Origin: an uncultured Acidimicrobiaceae bacterium
GTDB taxonomy: Bacteria; Actinomycetota; Acidimicrobiia; Acidimicrobiales; RAAP-2
Assembly (NCBI GenBank): GCA_963719485.1
Contig: OY970387.1
Coordinates: forward strand, 1,899,717 to 1,963,716
Reading direction: 5' to 3'
DNA length: 64,000 nt
The first letter of the stretch is position 1. Every line of letters begins with the position of its first letter. Position numbers and translations under genes: made by a program. Below are positions 12,568 to 48,721 of the stretch, in pieces. The notes beneath the pieces are model-generated. The model saw only the letters and a program-made list of their open reading frames with translations, had not been told where the DNA came from and did no database searches.

Positions 12568-12585
12568 ACATAGTAGCAACTATGT
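12568..12585. promoter_or_regulatory. palindromic operator-like site 1: ACATAG-TAGCAA-CTATGT
   Basis: Read directly. It is one of 7 related palindromes and lies in degraded intergenic DNA, next to a GC hairpin at 12544-12565. Confidence 0.6.
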
Positions 12586-12819
12586 GAGGCGTATGCGAAC
12601 CCAATTTGGTCCATGGGAACCCGATTGACCACAGATGCTCAGCGAGCTGGTTGAGCAGGCTCTCCGGGTAGAAGCGCCGACGAGGGAGCAGGCTCCCGCC
12701 GTCCTGACGAGCTCCGATGACGACCTTTTGGAAGTGGTGTCGTCGGCCAGGCACACAGACCAATGGGCGGTCGCGCAGCGTCGAAGACGTCGAGCGGAGA
12801 GTCGTTGAGTCGGTTTGCC

Positions 12820-14103
12820 TCAGGCAGTGGCGCGATCCGCCATTGCGGCCATGTCAATCCCGGTTTGGGCGTGCTCGTACCGCCCCTTGTCAAAGGCCCG
12901 TATGGAGACGTCGTGATCGCCAGCCTCCGCGCGCAGAGCGGCAACGGTCGATCGTTCCTTGGCCCGGTGCGCGAAAGGGTCGAATGAGTACCAACGGCAG
13001 GCGTTCTCGTAGGTGATCATGGACAGCTCGCGATCAGGCACGGCGGCCGCTACCAGGGCTAATTCCTCAGGCGCCTTTGGCCAGGAGGAGTCGGAGTGTG
13101 GGTAGTCGCACTCCCAGGCAATGTTCTCGAGCCCTATCTGCTGCCGCAATTGGATGCCCACCGGGTCGGCGATGAAGCAGGTCAGGAAATGCTCACGGAA
13201 GACCTCACTGGGCAGCCGCGTTCCGAAGTCCTGGCCTGTCCAAAGATGGTGCATGTCGTAGGTGCGGTCCAGCCGATCGATGAAATAGGGGATCCAGCCT
13301 GTCCCACCCTCCGAAAGGGCGAAGCGGATGTCGGGGAAATTTTTGATCACCCGGGACCAGAGGAGGTCGGCCGCGGCCTGGCAGATGTTCATCGGCTGCA
13401 GGGTGATCATCACGTCGACCGGTGCGTCCGGTGCCGTCACGGCGAGTTTGCCGGACGAGCCCAGATGGATGGAAACCACCACGCCCTCGTCCACCACCGC
13501 CCGCCAGAGAGGGTCCCAATGGTCGGAGTGGAAGCTGGGGTAGCCGAGCGTGGCCGGGTTTTCAGTGAACGTGATCGAGTGGCATCCTTTCGCTGCCACT
13601 CGACGAACCTCCGTTGCGGCCAATTCGGGATCCCACAGCACGGGCAGCGCCATAGGAATGAAGCGACCAGGGTAGGACCCGCACCAGTCCTCGATATGCC
13701 AGTCGTTGTAGGCCTGAACCACCGCCAGCGCCAAGCCTTTGTCCTCGCAAGCGGCGAAGAGGCGGCCGCTAAACCCGGGAAAGGACGGGAAGTTCATGGA
13801 CCCCAGCACGCCACCTGCGTTCATGTCCTTGATGCGTTCGTGCACGTCGTAGCAACCCGGCCGCATTTCGTCGAACGCTGTCGGTTCGACCCCGTATTCC
13901 TCCTTGGGGCGGCCGGCCACGGCGTTCAGGCCGACGTTGGGTATCACGTTCCCGTTGAAGATCCAGACGTCCGAGCCCTCTGACATGCGTTCGATTCGAG
14001 GCGCAGCATCGACGAAACGGGTTGGCAACCGCCCGTCGAAGATCTCGGGCGGCTCGACCAAGTGGTCGTCGACACTCACCAGGATCAGGTCTTTGGCGTC
14101 CAT
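12820..14103 (-). CDS. amidohydrolase_2 (ACMSD/LigW-type) family protein
   Basis: 427 aa. It has 'VSVDDHLVEPPEIF...' and a C-terminal 'WECDYPHSDS'. GAGGAAGGAA RBS. Confidence 0.85.
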   Translation of the reverse strand: MDAKDLILVSVDDHLVEPPEIFDGRLPTRFVDAAPRIERMSEGSDVWIFNGNVIPNVGLNAVAGRPKEEYGVEPTAFDEMRPGCYDVHERIKDMNAGGVLGSMNFPSFPGFSGRLFAACEDKGLALAVVQAYNDWHIEDWCGSYPGRFIPMALPVLWDPELAATEVRRVAAKGCHSITFTENPATLGYPSFHSDHWDPLWRAVVDEGVVVSIHLGSSGKLAVTAPDAPVDVMITLQPMNICQAAADLLWSRVIKNFPDIRFALSEGGTGWIPYFIDRLDRTYDMHHLWTGQDFGTRLPSEVFREHFLTCFIADPVGIQLRQQIGLENIAWECDYPHSDSSWPKAPEELALVAAAVPDRELSMITYENACRWYSFDPFAHRAKERSTVAALRAEAGDHDVSIRAFDKGRYEHAQTGIDMAAMADRATA

Positions 14104-14200
14104 CGTTCCATTCCTTCCTCGGGCCGGTCGTCCCGATCTGCGCTGTATTTGAAGAGCTTGACTTCCGAGCCGCCTCGGCTCTGTCTTCGGTGGATGTGGC

Positions 14201-15868
14201 TCAACGACGCTCGTAAGTGATGCCTGAGGTTTCGACGTCCCAGGACGATGGCGTGGCGCCCTCGTCTCGGAGTTCGCGCTTGAGCACCCGGCCTACAGGG
14301 CTTCGGGGCAGAGCGTCTCTGAACTCGATATAGCGCGGCAGGGCGAAGTAGGGCAGTTGGTCGACGCACCAGCGGAAGAGTTCCTTCTCCGTGACGGTGG
14401 CCCCTTCCTTGCGGCTAGCGGTGATCTTCAGGTCGTCCTCGGTCAGCGGGCTGGGCACGGCGTGCACGGCCACGTCGGCAAGGTCTCCGTGTCTCATGAG
14501 AATCCGTTCCACTTCGAAGCTGGCGATGTTCTCGCCACGTCGACGCAAGTAGTCGGCCTTGCGGTCGACGAAGTAGAGGTAGCGGTCCTGGTCAATCTTG
14601 CCGATGTCGCCCGTGTGGTACCAGAGATTGCGCGTGGTGCGGACTGTCTCGTCAGGCCGACCCCAGTAGCCCTCGAACATGACCTGGGCCCGCTTTGGCC
14701 GAAGAACGATTTCGCCCTCGGTGCCCGGCGCCACCTCGTGATCCTCGTCGTCGAAGATGCGCACGTCGAAGTACTCGTCGTTGACGACCCCGGCCGCGTT
14801 GGGCCGGTTGTCTGCCCCCGGGGGTTGCCACGACACCAGGCTGGCCTCGGTGACGCCGTAGGCGCCGCTGAAAGTGTCCACCCCGAAACGAGACCGGATG
14901 ACCTGATCCACCTCGACCGGAAGAGGGGCCGCCCCCAGTAGGCGCAGTGAGGTGTTGGCCTGCGACGCTCCCGACTTGGGCATCTCGAGCCGGTCCACGT
15001 CGTGGGCCAGCAGGTAGGCCATGGTGCCGAGCGTCGAGGTGATGGTGGCCCCAACCCGATTCATCTCAGGCCAGAATTGCGACACCGAGAAACGTCGGTG
15101 GATGGCGCCGCGGCCCCCGAAAAGCAAGGTGCCCACGACGACGGTCGTAAGAGCGTTGAAGTGGTAGAGGGGGAGTGGCGTCCATACTACGTCCTGGGCG
15201 GTGCGGCGCCAGCAGATGCCGATCTGGTGGGCAAGCGCCCCGTGGTAGTTGTGGCTCAGCATGCAGCCCTTGGAAAGTCCGGTGGTACCTCCTGTGTAGA
15301 TAAAAGTGCCGAGGTCGGCAGGGGCGATGTCGACAGAGGGGGTCGGCAGGCCCTCGGCCAGCAAGTCGTCCCACCGCTGCACAACGGCTCCACCAACCGT
15401 CGTGGCATCGACGACACAGGCAGCGTTCTCGTCTTCGCCCTCTTCGTCCTCGACCAGGATCACGTGCTCCAGGTTGGGCACGTGATCGGCGATGGCAGCC
15501 ACTCGCGGAAAGAGGCTGGCCGCGACCACGAGGACGCGCGAACCCGAGTCCACCAGCTGGTGGGACAGGTAGTCGGCCTTGTAGGCCGTATTGATCGGAA
15601 CCGAGATCCGTCCCGCGCATACCGTGCCTGCCCAAGCCAGTAGGGCGGCCGGGGAATTCTCGACAAGCGTGGCAACCCGGTCGTGGCGTTCCGTTCCCAG
15701 CGCCAAGAGGGCGCCGCCAAACTGCCCGGCCGTCTCGGTAACCGCCCGCGCCGTCAGTTTGACACCGCCCACGTCGAGGTACTCGCCATCCGGATTGCTC
15801 TCCATCCGGCGGGCGAAGAGCTGTGGAATGGTGGACTGCTCGCCCCCGGCCCAGATGCTGTCACCCAC
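14201..15868 (-). CDS. AMP-dependent acyl-CoA synthetase/ligase
   Basis: It has 'FIYTGGTTGLSKGCMLSH' and 'WYHTGDIG..D.DRY..FVDRKAD'. GTG 15868 is preferred over the ORF start at 15976 because the operator palindrome at 15925-15942 would otherwise be coding. Confidence 0.85.
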   Translation of the reverse strand: MGDSIWAGGEQSTIPQLFARRMESNPDGEYLDVGGVKLTARAVTETAGQFGGALLALGTERHDRVATLVENSPAALLAWAGTVCAGRISVPINTAYKADYLSHQLVDSGSRVLVVAASLFPRVAAIADHVPNLEHVILVEDEEGEDENAACVVDATTVGGAVVQRWDDLLAEGLPTPSVDIAPADLGTFIYTGGTTGLSKGCMLSHNYHGALAHQIGICWRRTAQDVVWTPLPLYHFNALTTVVVGTLLFGGRGAIHRRFSVSQFWPEMNRVGATITSTLGTMAYLLAHDVDRLEMPKSGASQANTSLRLLGAAPLPVEVDQVIRSRFGVDTFSGAYGVTEASLVSWQPPGADNRPNAAGVVNDEYFDVRIFDDEDHEVAPGTEGEIVLRPKRAQVMFEGYWGRPDETVRTTRNLWYHTGDIGKIDQDRYLYFVDRKADYLRRRGENIASFEVERILMRHGDLADVAVHAVPSPLTEDDLKITASRKEGATVTEKELFRWCVDQLPYFALPRYIEFRDALPRSPVGRVLKRELRDEGATPSSWDVETSGITYERR

Positions 15869-15924
15869 TGCGGCGTCTCCCCTCGTCCTCGGTGCCGGCT
15901 TCCAAGGGCCGGATCTGGATTCCA

Positions 15925-15942
15925 ACATAGTAGATGCTATGT
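15925..15942. promoter_or_regulatory. palindromic operator-like site 2: ACATAG-TAGATG-CTATGT
   Basis: Read directly. It sits in the divergent gap between the ligase (minus strand) and the thioesterase (plus strand). Confidence 0.65.
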
Positions 15943-16041
15943 TGAGTATGACGAGAGTGTGAAGGGGTCGAGCCAACTCGTGGGGTCGGGATCACAGCTC
16001 AAGACCGGCTCGGCAGTGGAGGCTGACGCCATGACCAAGCA

Positions 16042-16500
16042 ATGCCAGCAATCGTGAAGGAACCGACCGGACTCACGCACTCACCCGAGGAGCTCCTGTC
16101 CCGGTACCACAAGACGATGGGTGGTCGGCCCGTCGCAGAGTTGGAGTTTGCTGAATACACGGAGGAACGACTCGTTCTACGCGCCGAGCTCGAACGCGGG
16201 CACACCCGTCCCGGTGGGATGGTTGCCGGCCCGATCCTCTTTACCTTGGCCGACACGGCGGCGTACTTCGTGACCATCTCGCGGTCGCCAAAACGCTCCG
16301 AGGCCTACACCAGCTCCATCTCGATGGAGTTCCTCCGGCCTTCACCGGTCGGAACCCTGTTTGTAGAGGCACGATCCCTTCGCTTCGGAAGGCGATCTTC
16401 TGTGGTCGACACGATCATTCGATTAGCAGACGGCCAGGAACCGGTTGCGCATGCCGTCGTGACCTACGCTCCGTCCTTCCCAAAAATCAACAGTGCGTGA
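16042..16500 (+). CDS. PaaI-family hotdog-fold thioesterase
   Basis: 152 aa with a 'PGGMVAGPILFTLADTAAY' motif. Confidence 0.8.
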   Translation: MPAIVKEPTGLTHSPEELLSRYHKTMGGRPVAELEFAEYTEERLVLRAELERGHTRPGGMVAGPILFTLADTAAYFVTISRSPKRSEAYTSSISMEFLRPSPVGTLFVEARSLRFGRRSSVVDTIIRLADGQEPVAHAVVTYAPSFPKINSA

Positions 16501-18082
16501 TCTAATCCTCAATCGGGATGCGCTCGGTGCCACCGAGGCATCCTTGCCGAACCTCGTCGACGCGAAGGCCCGCGAGAATCCGGAGGGGGTTCTCCTGGTT
16601 GACGACTGCAATCGTCAGATGACGTATGGAGAGTTTCAGGCCGAGTCGGAACGTGCGGCCCTACGGCTTGCAAACCTTGGGGTTGGTCCGAACTCGATTG
16701 TGTCGTGGATTCTCCCAACCGCTATGGAGTCCTTGGTCGTGATGGTCGCGCTGTCACGGCTTGGCGCGGTGCAGAATCCCATCATTCCGATGTATCGCGA
16801 GCGCGAGATCGGACACATTCTCGATGAGGCCCGTGTCGATGCGATCATCGTCCTTGAAAACTGGGCGGGCGTCGCCTACAAAGACATGGCAGAGGCCTTG
16901 TCGGGAGATCGCGGCGGAACTCCGGTGGTGTGGACGCTCGAAGAGGTGTTGGGAGAGTCTTTTGCTTCGCAATCGGCGACGTCGCACAGTGGAGCGGCGC
17001 AGAAGCCAGCAGAGTGGTTGTTCTATACGTCGGGGTCATCGGGTGTGCCGAAGGGTTGTCGCCACACCGACCGAACATTGTTCTCCTGTGCCGTAGGGAT
17101 GACGATGCACCTGGGAATGACCGCAGAGGACAGAAGTGGAATCGCGTTTCCCATCGCGCACATCGGGGGAGCAGTCAATCTGATGGCGGCTCTTGTGAGT
17201 GGAGCAACGCTGATCCTCATCGAGAGGTTCTCGAGAGAACAGACCACGGACGTTCTGGCCCGCGAGCAAGTCACCATGGCCGGGTCGGGTACCGCCTTTC
17301 ACCTCGCCTACTTGGAGGCGCAGGCCGCGCAGCCCAACGAGCCGATATTCCCGTCCCTCCGATGCTGTCCGGGCGGGGGTGCTCCCAAGCCGCCGGGCCT
17401 CCACGAGCGCGTCAAGCGCGAGCTCGGGGGCGTCGGCATACTTTCGGGATGGGGGCTGACCGAAGCGCCGGTGCTCACCATGGGGACGCCCGAAGACCCC
17501 GACGAGAAGCTGGCCGATACCGAAGGAAGGCCGCTGCCGGAGGTAGCGATTCGCGTGGTTGGTGCCGATGGCCGCGTGGTTGAAGCGGGAGAGCCTGGAG
17601 AGCTTCGAGTCCAGGCCCCTCAGCAGATGCTCGGGTATGTCGATCGAGCGCTTGACGCAGAGGTCTTCGATGAAGACGGATATGTCCGAACCGGAGATAT
17701 CGGAACGGTCGATTCCGACGGGTATGTGCGCATCACCGGACGGCTGAAAGACGTCGTCATCCGCAACGGAGAGAACGTCGCAACCGCCGAGGTGGAAGAT
17801 CTGCTCAGAGGGCATCCTGAGGTTGTCGATGTCGCCGTCTTGGGTCTGCCTGACCAACGAACCGGCGAGCGGGTCTGTGCCGTCGTCGAACTCAATCCCG
17901 ACACTCCGGCATTGACCGTTGCGTTGGTGGGTACCTATCTCCAGCAAGCGGGACTTCGGCGCATCGCGTGGCCAGAGCAGGTCGAGATGGTCGCATCGCT
18001 CCCACGAAACGTGGCTGGAAAAGTCGACAAAGCGGCTCTTCGGAGTGCCTTTTTGGCGAGCGACGCTGGACCCGTGGACTAA
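16493..18082 (+). CDS. AMP-dependent acyl-CoA synthetase/ligase
   Basis: 529 aa with 'FYTSGSSGVPKGCRHT', 'YVRTGDIG' and 'GRLKDVVIRNGENV'. The GTG start overlaps the upstream stop. Confidence 0.9.
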   Translation: MRDLILNRDALGATEASLPNLVDAKARENPEGVLLVDDCNRQMTYGEFQAESERAALRLANLGVGPNSIVSWILPTAMESLVVMVALSRLGAVQNPIIPMYREREIGHILDEARVDAIIVLENWAGVAYKDMAEALSGDRGGTPVVWTLEEVLGESFASQSATSHSGAAQKPAEWLFYTSGSSGVPKGCRHTDRTLFSCAVGMTMHLGMTAEDRSGIAFPIAHIGGAVNLMAALVSGATLILIERFSREQTTDVLAREQVTMAGSGTAFHLAYLEAQAAQPNEPIFPSLRCCPGGGAPKPPGLHERVKRELGGVGILSGWGLTEAPVLTMGTPEDPDEKLADTEGRPLPEVAIRVVGADGRVVEAGEPGELRVQAPQQMLGYVDRALDAEVFDEDGYVRTGDIGTVDSDGYVRITGRLKDVVIRNGENVATAEVEDLLRGHPEVVDVAVLGLPDQRTGERVCAVVELNPDTPALTVALVGTYLQQAGLRRIAWPEQVEMVASLPRNVAGKVDKAALRSAFLASDAGPVD

Positions 18083-18732
18083 TCCTTCGTGCGATCCTTT
18101 CCGGCGGCAATGCCTTGCAGGACCAACGCGATTCGCAGATCCAGGCTCTCGCGAAGGGTGCGATCACCATCGCCGGCCGCCCATCGCTGCAGCGCGTCGA
18201 CAACCATGCCTGCCATGACCTCTCCAACGTCCGCCGGCACAATGTCGGGTCGGATCCTTCCCTGCTGTTGACCGTCGCCGACAATACGGCTGAGCACGTC
18301 GTCAAAGAGGATCTGATCGCGGCCGAGCTCGCGCGCTGCGACGCTGTTGAGCGCCACCTGACGCATGATCGTGACGGCAAGGCTGCGTGGTGTGTGCTCC
18401 ATGCGGGACACCAGCCCCTCGACAAACGCCTCAATCTCGTCATCGAATGAGCCACGACGCACGGCTTCATCGACGTCGGAGTTGACCCCAACTGCTGTAG
18501 CCAGGGCGAACTCGACCAGCAACCGCTCCTTCGATTCGAAGTGAAGGTAATAGGTCGATCGTCCGATCCTTGCCGCGTTGCAGAGGTCCTCTACGGTGGT
18601 CTCGTTGTACCCCTTTTCCGCCCAGACGTTCGCCGCGGCGCGGATGATCGCTCGACGGGTGTTGAGCGACCGTTCCTGACGGAGCAGGGTGCGACGGTAG
18701 GGATTCGCTACCGTAGGTTGCCCGTCAACCAC
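18079..18732 (-). CDS. TetR/AcrR family transcriptional regulator
   Basis: 217 aa with the N-terminal HTH 'TTVEDLCNAARIGRSTYYLHFESKE'. Confidence 0.9.
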   Translation of the reverse strand: MVDGQPTVANPYRRTLLRQERSLNTRRAIIRAAANVWAEKGYNETTVEDLCNAARIGRSTYYLHFESKERLLVEFALATAVGVNSDVDEAVRRGSFDDEIEAFVEGLVSRMEHTPRSLAVTIMRQVALNSVAARELGRDQILFDDVLSRIVGDGQQQGRIRPDIVPADVGEVMAGMVVDALQRWAAGDGDRTLRESLDLRIALVLQGIAAGKDRTKD

Positions 18733-18804
18733 AGGCTCGTGGCTCAGGTGCGTCGCGTCGTCGTTCGGGGGGAATGGCGGCGGAGTGGTGGCCGCGGACT
18801 GAGG

Positions 18805-19659
18805 TCACGATGGTGCGCGACGAAAGACGTAGCTTGCCGCAGTTGTCGCACGGTCGTCGTTTCCTTCATCGTGGACCGTAAGTTGAACGCCGATGCGACC
18901 CGACCCGTCCGAGCCGGTCAGGACCGAACCTTGACACCGGAAGGGACCGACCTTCCCTCGAGCGAGGAACATGACGTGCACGCTATCCACTTGGAGTGCT
19001 GCGTCGCCCGCATACGCCGTTGCCAGTTCGACCGCCGCCGTCTCGAGAAGGATGTGTTGTGGCCCCAGGTGCAGGGCAGCATCTGGGGACGCCAGCTCTT
19101 CCCGAAGCTCGGGAAGCACCCAATGCCCGTCGTTGCGCCGGGTTGCTCCGAAGACTTCCCAGAGTGGAGGCAGCTCTGGCGAGTCTTCAATGTGCATGAC
19201 CGGGTCATCTTCGAAGCGTTGTAAGCCCGGAGGCACTTCTCCGATGGAGGCCCCCTGAGCATCGACGAGCGCAATGACCCGATCGTGGTTTTCGGCATCC
19301 ACGATGGACGCTCGGCTGAAACCCATCCGCTGACCGCGCTTCAAGCTGACCGCTCCGATCACGTCGACCCTCTTGACGTCGCGGGCGTCATCGATGATCT
19401 GCAGCGAGTGGATCACGGGATTCGGGACGTTTTCGAGGTCCGAACCGGTCGCACCACCGGGGCAGATGATGGCGAGGGGAGCAGCCATGACCCCACCGGC
19501 GGGGTTTCGCATGTCATGACGAAGCGTCACGGCGCCGTCCTCGACGACGTTCATGGAGGAGAACCGGCGGCCGATGTAGCGGTAGCTGAGGAGAGCGCCC
19601 CACCGTTTGCGGAGCTCGTCCCAGTAGTCAGCGTCGGGGACTTCTCGAATGTCCTGCAT
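18805..19659 (-). CDS. hypothetical protein, possible tandem hotdog-fold (thioesterase-like)
   Basis: The ATG (MQDIREV) lies within ORF 18805..19824. It has 'NPAGGVMAAPLAIICPGG' and a second hotdog-like half. The function call is tentative. Confidence 0.6.
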   Translation of the reverse strand: MQDIREVPDADYWDELRKRWGALLSYRYIGRRFSSMNVVEDGAVTLRHDMRNPAGGVMAAPLAIICPGGATGSDLENVPNPVIHSLQIIDDARDVKRVDVIGAVSLKRGQRMGFSRASIVDAENHDRVIALVDAQGASIGEVPPGLQRFEDDPVMHIEDSPELPPLWEVFGATRRNDGHWVLPELREELASPDAALHLGPQHILLETAAVELATAYAGDAALQVDSVHVMFLARGKVGPFRCQGSVLTGSDGSGRIGVQLTVHDEGNDDRATTAASYVFRRAPS

Positions 19660-19808
19660 CTGCCCAGGATACAAGGAATCTGGACGACTGACCAGATTTC
19701 TCTGGACAATCGTCCATAGAAGCGGATAGTCTGACCTCGAGAGTTCCCACCCCTGGTGGAAAGACGAAAGGGACGACGGATGACCTACGTCAAGGGCGTG
19801 ACTGGGTA

Positions 19809-21005
19809 GTGGGTCGCCTCGCATTTCCTGTTTTCGACGCCGACAACCACCTCTACGAGACGCGAGAGGCCCTCACGAAGTACCTGCCGGAGGCGCGAGC
19901 CGGCGCTATCGACTTCGTCGACGTGCACGGGCGCACCAAGATCACCGTCAACGGGCAGATCAGCAACTACATCCCGAATCCGACCTTCGATCGAGTCGGA
20001 CGACCCGGTGCGATGGCCAGCTACTTCAGGGACGGCAATCCGGAAGGAAAGTCATACCGGGAGATCGTCGGGCACGGGATTGATTGCCCAGACGCGTTTC
20101 GCAATGCATCGGCACGACTCGAGTTGATGGATGAGCAGGGCATCGATTTCGCGATGATGTACCCAACGCTGGCCAGCCTGATCGAAGAACGGATGCGAGA
20201 CGACCCGGATCTTTGCGCAGACGCCGTCCACGCCCTGAACCGATGGATGACCGAAGCGTGGCCGTACGTCTTCGAGGGGCGGATTTTCGCGACCCCGGTC
20301 ATCGCAACGGGTCTCGTCGATCGTGCACTCAGGGAACTGGACTACGTGGTGGAGCATGGAGCTCGAGCCGTACTCGTTCGACCGGCGCCAGCCTGGGGTT
20401 ATCGCGGTCCTCGTTCGTTTGCGCTCCCAGAATTCGATCCTCTGTGGAAAAGGGTCGAGGAGGCGGGACTCGTTGTCGTTCTTCACGCCTCCGACAGCGG
20501 CTATGTCCGTTACACCAACGAGTGGGATGGTCAAACCGGAGAAGCCCTCGCGTTCGGCGACGCCAGTCTGTTCTCAATGGTGGTCGAAGGTGACTACCGA
20601 GCGATTCGGGATGCAGCAACGTCGGTCATCTGTCACGGGATGCTCGAGAGATTTCCGAAGCTCCGACTGCTGATGGTCGAGAATGGCGGCGGCTGGGTGC
20701 CACACCTTCTCGAAACGCTTGACCACGGCTATCAGCGAGCTCCCCATCGTTACGCCGAACACCCAGCGGAGACGTTCAAGGGGCACTTCTGGATGCATCC
20801 CTTCCACGAAGAGGATCCCCGGATGCTCGTGAACCTCCTCGGCGCGGACCGCGTTGTGTTCGGGTCCGATTTTCCGCACATCGAAGGACTGGCCGATCCG
20901 GTGTCGTGGGTGAAGGAATTGGATGGATTGCCAGAGGACCAGGTGCAGCTCGTCATGGGGGGGAACATGCTGAATCTGTTCGGTATCGAGACCGCAGGTG
21001 TCTGA
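19809..21005 (+). CDS. amidohydrolase_2 family protein
   Basis: 398 aa with a GTG start. It has 'VFDADNHLYE' and a C-terminal 'VVFGSDFPHIEG'. Confidence 0.88.
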   Translation: MGRLAFPVFDADNHLYETREALTKYLPEARAGAIDFVDVHGRTKITVNGQISNYIPNPTFDRVGRPGAMASYFRDGNPEGKSYREIVGHGIDCPDAFRNASARLELMDEQGIDFAMMYPTLASLIEERMRDDPDLCADAVHALNRWMTEAWPYVFEGRIFATPVIATGLVDRALRELDYVVEHGARAVLVRPAPAWGYRGPRSFALPEFDPLWKRVEEAGLVVVLHASDSGYVRYTNEWDGQTGEALAFGDASLFSMVVEGDYRAIRDAATSVICHGMLERFPKLRLLMVENGGGWVPHLLETLDHGYQRAPHRYAEHPAETFKGHFWMHPFHEEDPRMLVNLLGADRVVFGSDFPHIEGLADPVSWVKELDGLPEDQVQLVMGGNMLNLFGIETAGV

Positions 21006-21029
21006 GCAGAAACTCCGCAAAGGTCTCCC

Positions 21030-29394: not shown

Positions 29395-29415
29395 CGGAAG
29401 GAAAGGAGTAGACGG

Positions 29416-34521: not shown

Positions 34522-34525
34522 GCAG

Positions 34526-36425: not shown

Positions 36426-36440
36426 CCTGTGATTCACAGG
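36426..36440. promoter_or_regulatory. second, distinct palindrome CCTGTGA-t-TCACAGG
   Basis: Read directly. It lies 64 nt upstream of the ATG at 36504. Confidence 0.4.
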
Positions 36441-36503
36441 TCAGTCGGCGAGCGTGCGTTGGCATGCATCGAGCCTCAGCTCGAAGAACAGGGGAGGGAT
36501 GCA

Positions 36504-37844: not shown

Positions 37845-37876
37845 GCGAGGCCAGAAGGGGTCACTCGGGTAACTCG

Positions 37877-40057: not shown

Positions 40058-40802
40058 CGTCACAGATGTCAGTGTCAGCTTCGGTGGAGTCGCCGCCCTG
40101 ACGAACGTCTCACTTGCTGCCCCGAAGGGTCTTATCACGGGCTTGATCGGACCCAACGGCGCCGGAAAGACGACTCTTTTCGACGTCATCACTGGCATGC
40201 GCAAACCGAGCCAGGGCACGTTGCTGCTCGATCATCGCGATCTTCGCGGGCTATCCCCACACCGTCGGTCCCGCCTTGGTCTTGGAAGGACGTTTCAGCG
40301 CCTCGAGCTGTTCGGAACACTGACTGTGCGAGAGAACATCAACGTTGCGGCGTCCATCGGTCGGCGCCATCGGGCCCGCCGCGTGGCGACGGAACCGTCC
40401 GAGCCCCTCGGAGCTTTGGCCGAAAGGCTGATCAAGGCGGTACATCTCGAGGCCGTCGCCGACCGGCGTGCCGACACCGTGTCCACCGGCACGGGCCGAC
40501 TCGTCGAGCTCGCCCGCGCCCTCGCCGTCAAGCCGAGCGTGCTCCTGCTCGATGAACCGGCATCAGGGCAGAATGCCGAAGAAACCGAAGAGTTCGCCGG
40601 GGTACTGCGGCACCTGGCCGCGGACGGTCTTTCGGTTCTGCTTGTGGAACACGACATGGAGCTGGTCATGGGGGTCTGCGACAGCGTCTACGTGTTGGTC
40701 CAGGGGGCAATCTTGCGATCCGGCACCCCCGCCCAGGTCCAGAGCGACCCCGCCGTAGCGGCCGCGTATCTCGGGAGCTTGGCTGGAGCCGGCAATGCCT
40801 GA
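40047..40802 (+). CDS. ABC transporter ATP-binding protein (LivG-like)
   Basis: 251 aa with Walker A 'GPNGAGKTT', the signature 'STGTGRL' and Walker B 'LLLDEP'. Confidence 0.9.
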   Translation: MGLDVTDVSVSFGGVAALTNVSLAAPKGLITGLIGPNGAGKTTLFDVITGMRKPSQGTLLLDHRDLRGLSPHRRSRLGLGRTFQRLELFGTLTVRENINVAASIGRRHRARRVATEPSEPLGALAERLIKAVHLEAVADRRADTVSTGTGRLVELARALAVKPSVLLLDEPASGQNAEETEEFAGVLRHLAADGLSVLLVEHDMELVMGVCDSVYVLVQGAILRSGTPAQVQSDPAVAAAYLGSLAGAGNA

Positions 40803-41550
40803 GATGTCTGGAGCACTCCTGGCTGCTCGTGGTGTCCGAGCGTGCTACGAGGGAGTGGAGGTGCTCCACGGAATTGATCTGCAAATTGACCGGGGTTCGG
40901 TGACGGCGATCCTGGGTCCCAACGGCGCGGGCAAGTCGACGCTCCTGGCCGTCATCGCCGGCCTGCACGAGTGCTCCGCGGGTGAGGTCTTCTTCGATGG
41001 CACGCCGGTAAGCGTGGCCCACGCCGACTCCCTGGCACGCTCTGGGCTTTGCCTCATCCCGGAGGGGAGGGGAGTCTTCGCCAACCTGACTGTGCAGGAG
41101 AACCTATGGATGATGACGCACAATGGCTCAAGCCGACGCGCCATCGAAGAGCGGGCCTTCGCACGCTTTCCGCAGCTCGTGGGCCGACGAGGTCAGGTGG
41201 CCGGCACGCTGTCCGGAGGTGAGCAACAGATGCTCGCCATGGCTCGGGCTGTGGCCACCGAGCCGAGGCTGCTCCTCCTTGATGAGCTGTCCATGGGCCT
41301 GGCTCCCATCGTCGTGGAGGAGCTCTACGCCGTTGTTCGGAACCTCGCCGCGGATGGCGTCACGGTCGTCGTCGTCGAGCAATTTGCGGAGTTCGCGCTG
41401 AGCGTCGCCACGTGGGCTGTCGTGATGACGGGCGGAAGGGCTGTGCATTCCGGGAAGGCCACGGAGGTGGCCGGTTCCCTGCACGACATGTACCTGGGGA
41501 CGAATTCGACCAATGGAAAAGCATCGTCACGAAGCAAGGAGGAGCGATGA
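40795..41550 (+). CDS. ABC transporter ATP-binding protein (LivF-like)
   Basis: 251 aa with 'GPNGAGKST', 'LSGGEQQML' and 'LLLDELS'. Confidence 0.9.
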   Translation: MPEMSGALLAARGVRACYEGVEVLHGIDLQIDRGSVTAILGPNGAGKSTLLAVIAGLHECSAGEVFFDGTPVSVAHADSLARSGLCLIPEGRGVFANLTVQENLWMMTHNGSSRRAIEERAFARFPQLVGRRGQVAGTLSGGEQQMLAMARAVATEPRLLLLDELSMGLAPIVVEELYAVVRNLAADGVTVVVVEQFAEFALSVATWAVVMTGGRAVHSGKATEVAGSLHDMYLGTNSTNGKASSRSKEER

Positions 41551-42677
41551 CACTTCTGGACGCCCGTGAGGGTCCGACGAGCGATGAGCGCTTGATCTCA
41601 GCTGACAGCCATGTCGCCATCACCCACAAGCAGGTGAGAGCACATCTTGCCCGAGCCTTCCACTCCGACTATGACGACGCCGTTGCCGCCTTCACCCAAC
41701 GGATGGAGCGCGGCACGGCGGCTGCCAATCAGGCGGGCGTGACAATCAAACGGAGCGACAACGACGAACATATTGGGGCGAATGCCGTGTTCAAAAGGCC
41801 TGGTTATGGAGATCCACGTCAACGGCTGACAGACATGGACCTCGACGGTGTCGACGTGGAGGTGCTGTACTCGGAGGTCAGCGCCTTTCGATATATCCCG
41901 GACCTGAAGACTGGCGCCGGCGAGGCCACGCGTGCCTTCAATGACGCCTTGGACGAATTCGCCTCGACGGATCGTGAACGACTTTGCGTGTCGTACCAGA
42001 TACCGATCCACGACACCGACTTCGCCGTGGCCGAAGTGCAGCGCACCGCGGCTCGAGGCGGGAAGTCGCTCCAGCTTCCGGTGTTCCCGCCCGAGTTCGG
42101 GCTCCCTGACTACTACGACGAGCGGTACGACCGCCTCTTTTCGGCCATTGAGGAGACCGGTCTGCCGGTGTGCTGCCACATCGGCCTCAACACGAGTCTG
42201 GACGACCTCAGCCGACGGGATCCGACTCCTCAGAAGGGAGTGATGGTTGCGATGACGCCGCTCACGACGGGGGAGGCGTTCGGCATGTGGATCCTGACCG
42301 GGGTGCTGGCCCGGCACCCCCGGCTCAAGCTGGTGTTCGTCGAACCAGGATTGGCCTGGGTTGCTTGGTGGCTGCACGTGGTCGATGACATGGCGCTTCG
42401 ACAGGGCTACGAGTTCCCGGGATTAAGCGAACTTCCCAGTTTCTACTTCCATCAGAACGTGCATCTGACGTTCATCGAGGAGGACTTCTCGCTCGAGCTC
42501 CTGCGCGACCGGATCGGCGTTGAGAACATCATGTGGTCCTCTGATTACCCCCACCCGGTCACCTCCTGGCCTCATTCACGTCAGGTGGTTGAGAAGCAGT
42601 TCCACTCGATTCCGCCGGACGAGCGCGAGCTCATCCTCTCCGGGAACGCCAGGCGTGTCTGGAACCTGTCGGACTAG
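41547..42677 (+). CDS. amidohydrolase_2 family protein
   Basis: The ATG at 41547 (ATGA overlap) lies within ORF 41412..42677. It has 'ISADSHV' and 'IMWSSDYPHP'. It is a paralog of 46773..47834. Confidence 0.88.
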   Translation: MTLLDAREGPTSDERLISADSHVAITHKQVRAHLARAFHSDYDDAVAAFTQRMERGTAAANQAGVTIKRSDNDEHIGANAVFKRPGYGDPRQRLTDMDLDGVDVEVLYSEVSAFRYIPDLKTGAGEATRAFNDALDEFASTDRERLCVSYQIPIHDTDFAVAEVQRTAARGGKSLQLPVFPPEFGLPDYYDERYDRLFSAIEETGLPVCCHIGLNTSLDDLSRRDPTPQKGVMVAMTPLTTGEAFGMWILTGVLARHPRLKLVFVEPGLAWVAWWLHVVDDMALRQGYEFPGLSELPSFYFHQNVHLTFIEEDFSLELLRDRIGVENIMWSSDYPHPVTSWPHSRQVVEKQFHSIPPDERELILSGNARRVWNLSD

Positions 42678-42695
42678 GCGAATGGGAGACCTGGC

Positions 42696-43433
42696 ATGAT
42701 TGCTCGAACGCAGGTACTGCTGCCGGAGAGACCCCGAGGAGGGCGGAGACATGGGCGTGCGAATGGGGCGAAAGGCATGAGCCCGCGCGCCACCCCGACG
42801 ACACCTCGTACGCGCTCCCGCTCCCAGCCCGAATATCTCGACAAGGCGACCCTTGTGCGGACCGCGGCCGAAGTCGCCGATCGCGTCGGCTGGTCGGAGC
42901 TCACACTTTCCGAGGTGGCCCGGGAAGTCGATCGGCACGTCACTTCCCTCTACGCCCACGTCGACGGTCTCGATGATCTCCGGCGGGAAGTCACACTGCT
43001 GGCCCTGGACGAAATGATTGACGCGGTCTGGCGGGCGACTCTCGGGCGCGTGCGAGAGGATGCGCTGCGTGAGATTGCGCGGGCCCTGCGCCAGTACTGC
43101 GAGGACCATCCGGCACGAGCTGCCGCCGTCATCCTGACGAAGCACGCTTTGGATCCCGAGCAGGTCAGCAAGGCCGAGCGACTGGCAGAGCCCGTTCAGG
43201 CCACCTTGCGGAGCTTCGGTCTCAGCGAGAATCAAGTGTTCCACGCGCACCGCGCCTTCGCTGCCTCGGTGTGGGGCTTCACTCAAGGCGAGAACGGAGA
43301 GCTCTTTCCAGAGGGACGGGTCGACGAGTCGTTCGAGCAGATCCTCGAGATGTTCTTCCTGGCACTGAACAGTGGCACATGGCCGAGCGAACGACGCAAA
43401 CGGCCCGCGACTCGTTCGGTGAAGCGTCGTTGA
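42696..43433 (+). CDS. TetR family transcriptional regulator
   Basis: It has an HTH 'LTLSEVAREVDRHVTSLYAHV'. The start is uncertain (42696 or ATG 42777). Confidence 0.8.
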   Translation: MIARTQVLLPERPRGGRRHGRANGAKGMSPRATPTTPRTRSRSQPEYLDKATLVRTAAEVADRVGWSELTLSEVAREVDRHVTSLYAHVDGLDDLRREVTLLALDEMIDAVWRATLGRVREDALREIARALRQYCEDHPARAAAVILTKHALDPEQVSKAERLAEPVQATLRSFGLSENQVFHAHRAFAASVWGFTQGENGELFPEGRVDESFEQILEMFFLALNSGTWPSERRKRPATRSVKRR

Positions 43434-43486
43434 CCGCCCTGCCGGGGAGTGCAGAACCGGCACCTCGCACTCCATCTGAGGCCCAG

Positions 43487-44452
43487 ATGATCGACGTAAG
43501 ACGGTCGGAAGTCAGTGTGGACGTGAGCGCTGTCGCGCCCGCAGGGTGCAGGCGGATTGCTGCCGATGTCTTCGTACCCCAGAGTCTCCGTACGATGCCC
43601 TTGCTGTGGGTGTGCGTCCCGGGCGGTGGCATCAATCGTCGGTACTTCGACCTCGAGGTCGCGGGCCAGCACAGTGCATTCAGCATGGCCCGCCATCTCG
43701 CGTCACGCGGCGACCTCGTCGTGACGGTCGACCCTCCGGGTGTCGGAGGGAGCGATGTGCCCGATGACGGGTACGCCCTCACTCCCCGCGTGGTCGCCGA
43801 CGTCCTAGCGGGAGCCATCCACACGCTCCGAGCGGATCTCGGAACCGACGGCATTGCAGCTGCGGGGCTGCCCACTGTCGTTCCCAGGGCCACGGTCGGA
43901 CTCGGTCACTCGGCCGGGGCGCTTCTCGTCGCCTTCCAGCAGGCGCACCACAAGTCTTATGATGTCATCGCTCTGCTCGGGTTTTCCGCGTCGGGACTGC
44001 CGGGCGTCCTGAACGAAGAAGAGCTCCGCTATGCGGGCTGCCCTGAACGGTTCTCGGAAGATCTGAAGACGCTCACCAGGGCGCGATTCGGCGATCCGCT
44101 CCCCGAGTGGTCGAGCAGCAGCGCAGGTGAGCTGGAGCGCAATTCTGTTGCCACTGAGGTCGACGTGGCGCTGGCAGCGGCGAGCTCACGACTGTTGGCG
44201 CTCGTCGGGATGACGGCCATCGTGCCCGGGTCGGTGCAACCAGAGCTTGACCAGCTCCGTGGCCCCCTCTTTGCTGCCCTCGGCGACCATGATCTCGGCG
44301 GCACATTGGACGTCCTGCCGGGGCAGCTTCCCGCCTGCGGTGATCTCACGTTGTTCCTTCTCGAGGGCGCCGGTCACAACCACAACGTGGCGGTCAATCG
44401 CCGCATCCTCTGGGAACGCGTTGGCCGATGGGCAACATCCGTCACTTCCTGA
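43487..44452 (+). CDS. alpha/beta hydrolase (Ser nucleophile, GHSAG)
   Basis: Part of ORF 43271..44452. ATG 43487 is chosen because it clears the TetR stop; ATG 43379 is also possible. Confidence 0.7.
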   Translation: MIDVRRSEVSVDVSAVAPAGCRRIAADVFVPQSLRTMPLLWVCVPGGGINRRYFDLEVAGQHSAFSMARHLASRGDLVVTVDPPGVGGSDVPDDGYALTPRVVADVLAGAIHTLRADLGTDGIAAAGLPTVVPRATVGLGHSAGALLVAFQQAHHKSYDVIALLGFSASGLPGVLNEEELRYAGCPERFSEDLKTLTRARFGDPLPEWSSSSAGELERNSVATEVDVALAAASSRLLALVGMTAIVPGSVQPELDQLRGPLFAALGDHDLGGTLDVLPGQLPACGDLTLFLLEGAGHNHNVAVNRRILWERVGRWATSVTS

Positions 44453-44508
44453 CAAGTGTTTGGCTTGCGTGGTCGATCACTACCCAGCATGACGTTGCGG
44501 CCTCAGCT

Positions 44509-44526
44509 CCATAGTGACTACTATGG
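44509..44526. promoter_or_regulatory. palindromic operator-like site 5: CCATAG-TGACTA-CTATGG
   Basis: Read directly. It lies 93 nt upstream of the P450 ATG. An extra ACTATGG half-site is at 44538-44544. Confidence 0.65.
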
Positions 44527-44618
44527 AGCGCGGTATCGACTATGGCTGGTGGCTGCGGTCGGGAAGGAATCGGTCACTCCGAGGATCCGGACCCGGTCCA
44601 CCGTGGAGGACAGCAGTG

Positions 44619-45946: not shown

Positions 45947-46738
45947 CTACGTCGACTGCCCCCGAGCGTGGGCGAGCGCCGTGGCGTTGTCGGACTGCGC
46001 GGGGGCGGGTGACCTCAGCTCGATCCTCGGCATACCGATCGACGGTGCCTCAATGAGGCTGGCGAAAGTTGCGATCAGCACATCACACACTTCCTCGGTG
46101 TTCATGAAGGCAGAGGCATTTCTTCCAGACGATGTCCAGACCGAGAAGGCTTCGACGATGTCGTCGGCCGCAAAGTGTTGTCCGGATTCGGTCGGGACGG
46201 TGGCGCCCAACGAAATCGTCGTGAATCGGATCCACGGGTGCTCCTCGCGCCATTGCTGCATCATGTGCTCAAGAGCTGCCTTGCTTGCACCGTAGGCTCC
46301 CAGGTGGCTCCGCGGTGCATGGACGGCTTCGGAGGACACCACGGCAACCACTGCCGCGGGGGAGAGGTGTTCGAGCAGGGCCACGATTGTTCGGTGGATG
46401 CCGACCACGTTGGTCGAAAGCGCATCGTCCCAGTCCTGGTGGGTCGTGACCGCGAGCCGTCGCAGTGGCGCCATTCCGGCCGACACGAGCAGGAGGTCCA
46501 CAGGAGACGCGACGGCGGCGACTTCTCTGGCGAGGTGCCGACATCCTTCGACGTCACGGAGGTCGGTCTCAACGGAATGGCCGCCTCCAGCCTGCTTCAC
46601 CAATTGCGCCAGCGCTGCACCCCGCCGAGCCGCCACCACAACCCGTGCACCCGCACGGATGGCTCGCTCGGCCACGCCCTTGCCGATTCCCGAGGAAGCT
46701 CCGACAACGACGAGTGACCGCGCGGCGAGAGAGGGCAT
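45947..46738 (-). CDS. SDR family oxidoreductase
   Basis: 263 aa with 'VVVGASSGIGKG' and 'YGASKAAL'. Confidence 0.9.
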   Translation of the reverse strand: MPSLAARSLVVVGASSGIGKGVAERAIRAGARVVVAARRGAALAQLVKQAGGGHSVETDLRDVEGCRHLAREVAAVASPVDLLLVSAGMAPLRRLAVTTHQDWDDALSTNVVGIHRTIVALLEHLSPAAVVAVVSSEAVHAPRSHLGAYGASKAALEHMMQQWREEHPWIRFTTISLGATVPTESGQHFAADDIVEAFSVWTSSGRNASAFMNTEEVCDVLIATFASLIEAPSIGMPRIELRSPAPAQSDNATALAHARGQST

Positions 46739-46772
46739 GCCGTAGGGCCTACCCCTCTATACCCCGCGCACG

Positions 46773-47834
46773 CTACAGGCCATAGACGCGGGAAGCGTTG
46801 CCAGCCACCATCAGATCTCGCTCGTCGGCGGGGATACCCTCGAAGTTCTTCTCGACGACGATCTGCGAGTTCGGCCACGAGGTCGCAGGGTGCGGAAAGT
46901 CAGTGGACCACATAATCCGGTCGACGCCGAGCTCATGCCGATGCTCGAGGCCCCGCGCATCGTCGACAAACGTCATGTACATCTGGCGATGGAAGTAGCT
47001 ACTTGGCTTATCGTCCAGCTCAGGGAAGTCATAGGGGCCCTCAGCCATATGGTCCAACACGTGCAGGTAGTGCGGAATCCAGCCCAAGCTCGGTTCGACC
47101 AGGACGATCTTGAGGTCGGGAAAGCGGGCGAGGACGCCCGGCAGGATCCAGAAGGCGATGGTCTCGGCGAGCCGCATGGCCGGTTGCGAAGTGAAGATCG
47201 CCTTCTGCCGCGTGGGATCGCGACGGAAGAGGTCCCAGAGGGACGCCACGAGCCCTAGGTGTTGGCTGACCGACATTTCCGACGCTGAAATCGCTGACCA
47301 GACGGGGTCATACCGGGCATCGTGGTACTCGGGCAGCCCGACCTCGCTGGGGAAGGTCGGAATGTGGATTGCCTTCGCCCCTTCGGCTGCCAGCCCCTCG
47401 ATCTGCTTGACGGCGAACTCGATGTCCATGAGGGGCACTTGATAGGCCGGCACCAGGCGCGCCGGGTCAGCAGAGGCAAAGTCGAGCATGAAACGATTGA
47501 ACGCTTCGGACGCCTCCTTCCAGCCGTCCTTCATATGGGGGTAGTGCCGGAAGGCACTGACCTCGCTGTAGAGGATTTCGGCGTCCACCCCATCACGGTC
47601 CATGGCCTTCAACCGCTGTACTGGGTCGTAGTACCCGGGGTCTGTGAATGCCTCGTGGCTGAACCCCGCCACCATGACCGAGCGGTCCACGCCCCCCATC
47701 TCCCTCTGTTGCTGTTCCTCTTCAGCTGCGATCGCACCATCCCAGTCGGCCTGGTATTTCGTTGGAATGAGCTCTCTGAGTTGTTCGGGCGTCACCTTGA
47801 CGTGAGAGTCAACGGAGATCAGTCGGGTCGTCAT
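46773..47834 (-). CDS. amidohydrolase_2 family protein
   Basis: The ATG at 47834 follows GAGGGAGGG. It has 'ISVDSHV' and 'IMWSTDFPHP'. Confidence 0.88.
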   Translation of the reverse strand: MTTRLISVDSHVKVTPEQLRELIPTKYQADWDGAIAAEEEQQQREMGGVDRSVMVAGFSHEAFTDPGYYDPVQRLKAMDRDGVDAEILYSEVSAFRHYPHMKDGWKEASEAFNRFMLDFASADPARLVPAYQVPLMDIEFAVKQIEGLAAEGAKAIHIPTFPSEVGLPEYHDARYDPVWSAISASEMSVSQHLGLVASLWDLFRRDPTRQKAIFTSQPAMRLAETIAFWILPGVLARFPDLKIVLVEPSLGWIPHYLHVLDHMAEGPYDFPELDDKPSSYFHRQMYMTFVDDARGLEHRHELGVDRIMWSTDFPHPATSWPNSQIVVEKNFEGIPADERDLMVAGNASRVYGL

Positions 47835-47898: not shown

Positions 47899-47916
47899 AC
47901 ATAGTAGCTACAATGT
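47899..47916. promoter_or_regulatory. palindromic operator-like site 6: ACATAG-TAGCTA-CAATGT (plus extra half-site ACATAG at 47925-47930)
   Basis: Read directly. It sits in the divergent gap between the amidohydrolase (minus strand) and TetR (plus strand). Confidence 0.65.
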
Positions 47917-47968
47917 TGAACGTAACATAGGCCCCTCAGGCCGACAAGGGACACCTAGAGTTGCCAGC

Positions 47969-48655
47969 GTGACTATCAAGCCAGAGCGGACTAGGGCAGA
48001 CCGGGCACAGCGCCGCGAGCAGACCGCAGCTAGTGGAGACACCGATACTCGTGATCGGGTCATCAAGGCGGCCGTCGAATGCATCATTGAACTGGGCTTT
48101 TACCGGGGGTCCAGCACCAATGAGATCGCTCGGAAAGCTGGGGTCACCTGGGGAGTAATCCAGTGGTATTTCGGCAATCGAGAAGGGCTGATGCTTGCCG
48201 TCCTCGAGGACGGGGCGAACCACATGGTCGAGACCGTCAAGGACGCCCACATAGAAGGGCAGACCGTTCTAGAGCGGATGTCACAGCTGATCGACCTGTT
48301 CTTGGAGCACTACGGCAGGCCTGCTTACTTGGCCAGCCTTCAGGTCATGCTCAATATGGACCACGACCCCAAAACCAGTGCCGGCGTTCGCAACACTATG
48401 GCGGAGGTTGCGGAGCGGTCTTACACCCCGGTGCGGCGGCTGTTGCGGGAAGCCCTTGGGCCCGCCGCCAACAAACCTGACCTCATGACCACCATCTTTC
48501 TGGTGATACGCGGTTTTGCCTTCAGTCAGCAGCTCTTGGACTCCATGGCCTACGACACGGTGGCGCCGAAGCAGGATCGCGGCCAGCGTCACCGACGACT
48601 GCTCGCTCAGATCCTGGCTCCCTATGTCGAGATTGCTTCGGCGGTCGATCGCTGA
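47969..48655 (+). CDS. TetR family transcriptional regulator (candidate cognate regulator of the palindrome regulon)
   Basis: 228 aa with a GTG start and HTH 'SSTNEIARKAGVTWGVIQWYFGNREG'. It is flanked by palindrome sites 6 and 7. Confidence 0.88.
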   Translation: MTIKPERTRADRAQRREQTAASGDTDTRDRVIKAAVECIIELGFYRGSSTNEIARKAGVTWGVIQWYFGNREGLMLAVLEDGANHMVETVKDAHIEGQTVLERMSQLIDLFLEHYGRPAYLASLQVMLNMDHDPKTSAGVRNTMAEVAERSYTPVRRLLREALGPAANKPDLMTTIFLVIRGFAFSQQLLDSMAYDTVAPKQDRGQRHRRLLAQILAPYVEIASAVDR

Positions 48656-48703
48656 GGCCGTGGTGGCCGAACCACACAAACTCTGGAGAGCCCAGAACTG
48701 CAG

Positions 48704-48721
48704 ATATAGTAAGTACTATGT
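48704..48721. promoter_or_regulatory. palindromic operator-like site 7: ATATAG-TAAGTA-CTATGT
   Basis: Read directly. It lies about 74 nt upstream of the ATG at 48795. Confidence 0.55.

Follow-up and report, generated by a model that had tools for sequence, protein, structure and literature searches.

Seven copies of an 18-bp palindrome as probable operators of a local TetR-family regulator in a gene island of an uncultured Acidimicrobiaceae bacterium

Seven intergenic copies of an 18-bp palindrome are spread over a gene island of an uncultured soil Acidimicrobiaceae bacterium (assembly GCA_963719485.1), within the 64,000-nt stretch of contig OY970387.1 analyzed here (the window). The palindrome is confirmed as a real element, far beyond chance expectation. 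Judging from its conservation alongside a single regulator gene in related loci, we consider it about 80% probable that the seven copies are operators for a dimer of a TetR-family protein encoded in the same island, TetR3 (47969–48655, plus strand). The palindrome adds a new operator sequence and TetR3 a new subfamily of TetR proteins; the kind of mechanism is classical and involves no new principle.

The exact palindrome core, CATAG-N6-CTATG, occurs five times in the window, compared with 0.01 occurrences expected from dinucleotide-preserving shuffles, and eight times when up to one mismatch is allowed (0.36 expected). A palindromised weight matrix built from the seven window sites recovered only those seven, with scores of 24.9–31.0 bits and nothing at 10–24 bits; block-shuffled versions of the window gave one to six matches of at least 10 bits. 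The eighth one-mismatch match, at 23871, was rejected as a site: it lies within an enoyl-CoA (coenzyme A) hydratase gene and scores below 10 bits. An earlier note on this DNA had reported the seven copies, and all were verified at the same coordinates and with the same sequences. Its chance estimate of about 1 in 10^6 per position was approximate and of the right magnitude. The motif it gave, (A/C)CATAG-N6-CTATG(T/G), had the correct core, but the half-site proved to be longer, namely, ACATAGTA(G/A). The two halves of the 18-mer consensus read ACATAGTAg and nTaCTATGk, also written ACATAGTAG and CTACTATGT. Based on 88 sites (62 unique) from the window and related loci, the left half is A-C-A-T-A-G-T-A-(G/A) and the right half n-T-(A/G)-C-T-A-T-G-(G/T), with A3, A5, G6, C13, A15 and T16 invariant. 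Literature string searches for the motif returned only unrelated primer-like matches and no description of it.

Over-long open reading frame (ORF) starts in the window were corrected using orthologue alignments and ribosome-binding sites. After this correction all seven sites were still intergenic and six still lay upstream of gene starts, as previously described, with some distances revised (e.g., 33 nt for site 3 and 89–92 nt for site 5). Two sites (coordinates of all seven are given without strand) would be operators shared by divergent promoters. Site 2 (ACATAGTAGATGCTATGT, 15925–15942) lies 56 nt from the GTG start of a FadD-like gene (15868, minus strand) and 99 nt from the ATG of a thioesterase gene (16042), and site 6 (ACATAGTAGCTACAATGT, 47899–47916) lies 64 nt from the ATG of an Amidohydro_2 gene, designated D (47834, minus strand), and 52 nt from the GTG of TetR3 (47969). 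The ATG of Amidohydro_2 (D) is preceded by AGGGAGGG and is conserved in orthologues. Site 3 (ACATAGCAGCTGCTATGT, 30474–30491) is a putative operator 33 nt before the ATG of a fused CoA-transferase gene (30525), and site 5 (CCATAGTGACTACTATGG, 44509–44526) occupies the predicted promoter of a cytochrome P450 gene, 89–92 nt before its start at 44616/44619. Site 4 (CCATAGTAGTAACTATGG, 36269–36286) is a putative operator upstream of a LIV-type ABC importer operon, 217 nt before the likely binding-protein ATG (36504). Site 7 (ATATAGTAAGTACTATGT, 48704–48721) follows the TetR3 stop codon by 48 nt and precedes a 108-aa ORF by 55–73 nt. Finally, site 1 (ACATAGTAGCAACTATGT, 12568–12585; 31.0 bits) is an orphan in degraded DNA, as had been noted, with no intact adjacent gene; it is 282 nt upstream of a truncated 67-aa LivH-like ORF (12286–12083, minus strand), which lies beside a tRNA-Met gene (11984–12058).

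Related loci preserve both the palindrome and its placement. With TetR3 as the query, we retrieved 41 genome loci (one genome per species, 67–89% identity) from uncultured Acidimicrobiaceae/Acidimicrobiales metagenome-assembled genomes, most of them products of a single soil survey in Denmark (MFD isolate names). A further 80 loci on metagenome contigs were retrieved independently of the genome scan, using a query alignment that included a distant TetR3 paralogue, giving 121 related loci in total. Weight-matrix scores across the 808 kb of the 41 genome loci were bimodal, with 33 matches at 8–15 bits and 81 at 18–31 bits (strong sites, ≥18 bits). All 81 strong sites adjoined starts of the same few gene families, and at most 11 fell within naively called, over-extended ORFs, whereas 23 of the 33 weak background matches were in coding DNA (coding fraction 0.70). 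This is the enrichment in promoters that had been suggested as a check on an operator function. Phylogenetic footprinting, also suggested, gave a matching picture: in anchored alignments the 18-mer is nearly invariant, while the flanks have diverged and the 60 nt upstream of it are unconserved.

The positions of orthologous sites are likewise fixed. The CoA-transferase gene has a site 31–40 nt before its ATG in about 30 orthologous loci, and TetR3 has one 52–53 nt before its start (site start at -70/-71) in 26 of the 41 genome loci as well as in many metagenome loci. The remaining strong sites precede the P450, Amidohydro_2 (C), binding-protein and small-ORF genes. Sites just 3′ of the TetR3 gene, as for site 7, also occur in L024, L028 and L034, and similar sites at +627 to +721 from the TetR start are found in L044, L066, L067, L070, L072, L074, L094 and L103. 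Among metagenome relatives of at least 56% identity, 34 of 46 loci have a site of at least 18 bits, which in most cases lies at -70 to -150 or immediately 3′ of the gene, and relatives of 40–47% identity have ATAGTA..TACTAT-type sites in 9 of 34 loci. Some promoters carry tandem pairs of sites with starts 18–19 bp apart (L024 5913–5949, L026 2505–2540), which suggests that two dimers could bind side by side there.

Multiple intergenic palindromes, one of them in degraded DNA beside a tRNA gene, could also be copies of a small mobile or dispersed repeat, such as a miniature inverted-repeat transposable element (MITE) or a repetitive extragenic palindromic (REP)-like element. The unit here is only 18 bp, however, and the 40-nt flanks on either side of the seven sites are no more alike than random positions (identity 0.296 versus 0.297). 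Moreover, orthologous sites keep fixed distances to start codons while their flanks have fully diverged, which a dispersed repeat would not lead one to expect. A repeat origin, which the earlier note had named as a way in which the operator reading could fail, is extremely improbable given the lack of shared flanks. Of the refuting conditions named in that note, all that were examined turned out in favor of an operator function.

The same note had proposed the TetR at 47969–48655 as the candidate repressor, and this proposal gains support from phylogenetic footprinting and regulator linkage across some 120 loci and from an invariant recognition helix. The N-terminal helix-turn-helix (HTH) of TetR3 (residues 32–78) matches PF00440 at 38.1 bits (cut-off 24). 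Its AlphaFold model comprises nine helices (mean predicted local distance difference test score [pLDDT] 81.6, predicted template modelling score [pTM] 0.75), and the top 50 Foldseek matches of this model in the PDB are all TetR-family or TetR-type regulators (template modelling score 0.44–0.65). The C-terminal part matched no specific Pfam family, and solved structures and NCBIfam yielded no close characterised relative. In 36 orthologues of 60–84% identity, the recognition helix (A57-G-V-T-W-G-V-I-Q65) is invariant at A57, G58 and W61–Q65, and V59 and T60 are conserved in at least 90%. In a public gene call for TetR3 (P0097, on a 4.69-Mb NCBI/ENA contig), the protein is only 154 aa long, begins downstream of the HTH and carries no recorded Pfam domain; what orthologues conserve is the 228-aa form, which starts MTIKPERT.

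TetR3 is also the sole regulator family common to the 41 genome loci, with no second one conserved within 10 kb; two other TetR-like families are present in eight and five of these loci. In most of the loci a gene order recurs in which CoA-transferase and thiolase-like genes are followed variably by isochorismatase, MDMPI, Amidohydro_2 (C), 393-aa protein and P450 genes. TetR3 closes the array, and an opposite-strand Amidohydro_2 (D) is sometimes present. In the 15 genome loci lacking a site directly before TetR3, this gene is the last of the operon that begins at the CoA-transferase site and is read in the same direction; hence, TetR3 is always downstream of a site. The two other TetR regulators of the window, TetR1 (18079–18732) and TetR2 (42696–43433), were considered as binders and rejected, as their recognition helices are unrelated to that of TetR3 and they are linked in none and in only three of the 41 loci, respectively.

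How the operators may act is indicated by three asymmetries in the otherwise symmetric motif. At CoA-transferase sites an invariant T19 after the dyad creates TATGGT or TATGTT, in many cases with TG before it, while the base at the mirror position varies. At the TetR3 site a T14-to-A change (the CAATG 'mismatch') is conserved and creates TACAAT, and the reverse strand offers TACTAT toward the divergent Amidohydro_2 (D). At the P450 site (site 5), a -35-like TTGCGG lies 8 nt upstream, at 18 nt from the TACTAT in the right half; TTGC(G/A)(G/A) is also present about 7–8 nt upstream of the P450 site in L001, L003, L023 and L034, with a spacing to TACTAT of 17–18 nt. From these asymmetries it follows that -10 elements inside the operator, and thus promoter occlusion, are most likely. 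A sigma-70-like match on the minus strand (TTCACA-18-TAGCAT) places its -10 inside site 2 and is the sole such match overlapping any site.

Such TAnnnT hexamers (TACTAT, TACAAT, TATGGT) are built into the motif, and asymmetrically conserved bases suit a -10 function, so one might ask whether the motif is mainly a promoter element (an extended -10 or a site for an alternative sigma factor) rather than a repressor site. Nonetheless, at unidirectional promoters such as that of the CoA-transferase gene, ACATAG in the left half varies no more than the right half does, although as part of a promoter element it would fall in the spacer. Dyad symmetry is typical of dimeric DNA-binding proteins and unexpected for a sigma-factor site, site 1 has no gene, and site 4 lacks the hexamer on its gene strand. 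We consider it very unlikely that the motif is chiefly a promoter element.

A further alternative is that the palindrome forms an RNA or single-stranded DNA hairpin between operons, for example, a terminator, attenuator or mRNA-stability element. Each site can indeed be folded into a 7–10-bp hairpin (-3.5 to -14.7 kcal/mol), and the dyad is extended by at least 4 bp, with differing but complementary arms, in 7 of 126 sites compared with about 0.7 expected. However, there is essentially no covariation within the 18-mer, six positions of which are invariant in the 88 sites. Changes affect one side and disrupt pairing; for example, an A.A at positions 5/14 is found in 14 of 62 unique sites and is conserved at the TetR3 site, while a double change at one pair occurs in only 2 of the 62. 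No Rfam family matches the motif, tRNA being all that Rfam finds, and a promoter with its -10 inside the motif would leave the greater part of the motif untranscribed. A hairpin function is hence highly improbable as the explanation for the palindrome. Perfect palindromes extending 4–7 bp beyond the 18-mer are located at L001 7281–7312, L003 7388–7419, L065 ~948, L028 ~9930, L023 ~3343 and L007 ~4655, and that of site 5 in the window (44506–44529) extends 3 bp. Their arms differ yet remain complementary (TTCGTA/TACGAA versus TTCGTG/CACGAA), and could result from a hairpin function or from palindrome-perfecting mutation.

What the analysis establishes is the site statistics, the conserved positions, the linkage to the regulator and the TetR fold; that TetR3 binds the palindromes, that it represses rather than activates, and that it responds to an inducer are inferred. 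Each operator would overlap or abut a promoter -10 element, and at sites 2 and 6, where promoters stand back to back, a single operator probably spans both -10 boxes. When no inducer is present, the TetR3 dimer would block these promoters by occlusion and so keep at least seven transcription units repressed. Their products would be two acyl-CoA ligases, a thioesterase, the fused family-III CoA-transferase with a thiolase-like/OB-fold pair, the LIV-type ABC importer, the P450, three Amidohydro_2-type proteins related to diiron oxygenases, and TetR3 itself (negative autoregulation). Induction would occur when a pathway substrate or CoA-thioester intermediate binds the TetR3 C-terminal domain and the repressor is released.

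Several observations weigh against this reading. The genome loci and metagenome contigs were all selected via TetR3 itself, and co-occurrence of site and TetR3 is therefore partly by construction; the motif scans cover the window and TetR3-linked loci, and a wider (global) distribution of the motif is possible. Twelve of the 46 close metagenome relatives have no site on their (often short) contigs. Regarding promoter overlap, scans for E. coli-type promoters and terminators were uninformative for a high-GC actinobacterium, with three and zero promoter-like matches (at or below shuffle level), and site 4, without a TAnnnT hexamer on its gene strand, is 217 nt from its gene. The palindrome might be the operator of another factor encoded elsewhere, such as a TetR3-like paralogue or a member of another family, with TetR3 merely one of its targets. 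This alternative gains from the choice of loci and from TetR3 binding itself being an inference, and a suitable paralogue does exist: in L026, a protein of 35% identity to TetR3 keeps the recognition helix, so that cross-talk is possible, and its gene follows an Amidohydro_2 paralogue itself preceded by a site. On the other hand, the 10-kb neighborhoods of the 41 genomes conserve no other regulator family, and the site stays with the TetR3 gene or its operon across relatives of 56–89% identity. Similar sites lie beside relatives of 35–47% identity, and recognition helix and motif core are both invariant. Control by another factor is accordingly unlikely, and TetR3 remains the favored binder. 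The L026 paralogue belongs to a second, paralogous cluster (12457–18177) with CoA-transferase (43%), thiolase-like (70%), Amidohydro_2 (53%) and TetR3-like (35–40%) genes, and a palindrome copy at 16413 sits between divergent genes of this cluster.

The genes downstream of the sites, identified by Pfam, NCBIfam and PDB sequence searches, are arranged in several putative operons. From site 2, a leftward operon (12820–15868, minus strand) contains an acyl-CoA ligase (14201–15868; Pfam) and an Amidohydro_2 protein homologous to DitZ (12820–14103; Pfam, PDB), and a rightward operon (16042–18082, plus strand) contains a 4HBT thioesterase (16042–16500) and a second acyl-CoA ligase (16493–18082), both from Pfam. 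The core operon from site 3 (30525–36179, plus strand; Pfam, NCBIfam) starts with the fused double family-III CoA-transferase (30525–32939) and includes a ChsH2-type OB-fold protein (33048–33362) and thiolase-like lipid-transfer, isochorismatase-like and MDMPI/DinB-like proteins. The operon from site 4 (36504–44452, plus strand; Pfam) encodes the binding protein, LivHM, LivG, LivF, Amidohydro_2 (C), TetR2 and a 393-aa alpha/beta-hydrolase-like protein (43271–44452); Amidohydro_2 (C) has its own site in other genomes. Site 5 is followed by the cytochrome P450 (44616–45809, plus strand; Pfam), for which the best matches among solved structures are a CYP125 ancestor and a vitamin D3 hydroxylase (PDB, E = 1e-70). 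Leftward from site 6 (45947–47834, minus strand; Pfam, PDB) are the PtmU3/DitZ-like Amidohydro_2 (D) (46773–47834) and a short-chain dehydrogenase (45947–46738). The 108-aa ORF beyond site 7 (48777–49103, plus strand) belongs to no known family, and L034 has an orthologue (56% identity) that also stands after a site. Neither this ORF nor the 393-aa protein had a Pfam match above the curated cut-off, and a PDB search with the latter gave a chance-level match only.

In total, the window encodes four each of acyl-CoA ligases, enoyl-CoA hydratases and Amidohydro_2 proteins, together with one acyl-CoA dehydrogenase and the three TetR regulators. The earlier note had described a multi-operon regulon across the island. 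Sites do stand at several operons, but the operon at 19.8–30.2 kb has none, and the regulon therefore does not span the whole island. The palindrome is missing from the entire stretch at 16493–30240, which runs from the second CoA ligase gene through the fourth enoyl-CoA hydratase gene and includes TetR1. Several related genomes (e.g., L002, L005 and L013) lack this stretch, their thioesterase gene adjoining the CoA-transferase gene, and it resembles a module inserted together with a regulator of its own. The G+C content of the window is about 70% up to 12 kb and 58–65% beyond. The tRNA-Met gene sits where it drops from about 70% to about 62%, followed by the LivH-like fragment (12083–12286), which resembles the N-terminus of a LivH permease, and then by the orphan site 1; this stretch could mark the edge of the island or be the scar of a rearrangement. 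A megablast of 30–50 kb of the window against plasmid records gave no match.

Two leaders in the window have further features. The L011 site orthologous to site 4 is only about 38 nt before the binding-protein ATG, and because of this shorter distance the window appears to hold about 175 nt of extra DNA between site 4 and the binding-protein start (36287–36503); a further CATAG occurs at 36385, within the extra stretch 3′ of the site. The TetR3 leader (47917–47971) is conserved beyond the operator. It contains an extra half-site, TAACATAGG (47925–47933, plus strand), 8 nt downstream of site 6, which is kept in most orthologous leaders, and a 5-bp hairpin in which, among 17 sequences, two pairs show changes on both sides. 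A Shine-Dalgarno-like AAGGGG is located 17 nt before the GTG, along with a possible three-codon upstream ORF (TTG CCA GCG TGA), the stop of which overlaps the GTG start.

The proposed system resembles local repressors of the TetR/tetO type in its N-terminal PF00440 HTH, all-helical fold and dyad operator (18 bp here), as well as in the position of an operator in a divergent regulator/target promoter, where it overlaps -10-like hexamers in a layout that implies autoregulation. It differs in that the operator sequence is unrelated, that at least seven transcription units over 36 kb would be controlled instead of one efflux gene, and that TetR3 has no C-terminal Pfam family match. In KstR and KstR2, which act in cholesterol catabolism in Mycobacterium and Rhodococcus, a TetR repressor similarly governs many CoA-dependent catabolic operons of an actinobacterium, and the pathways share P450 (CYP125-like), acyl-CoA ligase, enoyl-CoA hydratase and thiolase-like/ChsH2-OB genes with the island. 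However, the host here is a member of the Acidimicrobiia, and the regulon holds genes for Amidohydro_2 proteins of the amidohydrolase-related dinuclear oxygenase (ARO) type. In agreement with the earlier note, the window motif (CATAGTA..TACTATG) fits neither the KstR consensus TnnAACnnGTTnnA nor the KstR2 consensus AnCAAGnnCTTGnT, both as quoted there, and TetR3 scores 26 bits against the NCBIfam KstR equivalog (cut-off 280), indicating that it is not KstR.

Other TetR-family systems offer partial parallels. The AmtR box of Corynebacterium glutamicum, where AmtR governs nitrogen metabolism, is CTAT-N6-ATAG, and is thus also a TetR-family operator of ATAG/CTAT tetramers with six-base spacing. 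Its half-sites are everted relative to the window motif, which reads ATAG-N6-CTAT and must be preceded by C and followed by G, and no protein sequence relationship between AmtR and TetR3 was seen beyond the HTH. The acyl-CoA-responsive regulators FadR/YsiA of Bacillus and FadR of Thermus, which repress CoA-dependent degradation genes, are among the best structure and NCBIfam matches over the HTH. They differ in their operator, and the match covers the N-terminal part only: TetR3 scores 46.2 bits in this region against the FadR equivalog NF053878, below the cut-off of 200. In gene content, the island is reminiscent of the dit clusters for abietane diterpenoid degradation in Pseudomonas, Paraburkholderia and Rhodococcus, with which it shares a DitZ homologue, PtmU3/DitZ-like proteins, P450s, a CoA ligase and beta-oxidation-like genes. 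Unlike those clusters, no ring-hydroxylating dioxygenase genes were found among the window genes scanned, and the dit regulator is of the IclR type rather than a TetR.

The Amidohydro_2 proteins could provide clues about the substrate of the pathway. The protein encoded at 12820–14103 aligns over its full length (residues 2–408) with DitZ (PDB 8uyr, E = 6e-113), a diiron diterpenoid hydroxylase that was assayed with dehydroabietic acid present (PMC13154177). The ARO proteins, DitZ included, have an N-terminal D-x-H and a C-terminal D-x-P-H-x-D/E motif (PMC13154177). Both motifs are present in 12820–14103 (DDH, DYPHSD) and 19809–21005 (DNH, DFPHIE), whereas 41412–42677 and 46773–47834 keep D-S-H but have DYPHPV and DFPHPA, without the final acidic residue. 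By sequence relationship, the four Amidohydro_2 paralogues are predicted relatives of the diiron oxygenases DitZ and PtmU3, not hydrolases or decarboxylases. The combination of a DitZ homologue, a CYP125-like P450, CoA ligases and a thiolase/ChsH2-OB pair suggests that the island functions in the catabolism of a terpenoid-type carboxylic acid, which is a lead and not a finding. More tentatively still, the TetR3 family and the ATAGTA..TACTAT operator might mark a conserved, undescribed CoA-dependent pathway by which widespread uncultured Acidimicrobiaceae of soil degrade terpenoid-type acids (resin-acid-like or steroid-like), employing several diiron oxygenases of the DitZ/PtmU3 type together with a CYP125-like P450, a fused family-III CoA-transferase and an aldolase-like thiolase/ChsH2-OB pair.

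If this is true, the operator would be a handle for delimiting the pathway genes in metagenomes, and TetR3 could serve as a biosensor for the pathway substrate. The outcome is a testable regulator-operator pair, with a computationally delimited regulon, in an uncultured and apparently common lineage of soil actinobacteria. Among the genes that the regulon links are members of the amidohydrolase-related diiron oxygenases, a group recognised only recently, and these include a close homologue of DitZ. Since the operator connects such genes, it offers a way to search for the other genes of the pathway and to select substrates for biochemical work. The regulatory mechanism would itself be an ordinary but sound gene switch, and the main value lies in the handle it offers on an uncharacterised catabolic pathway.

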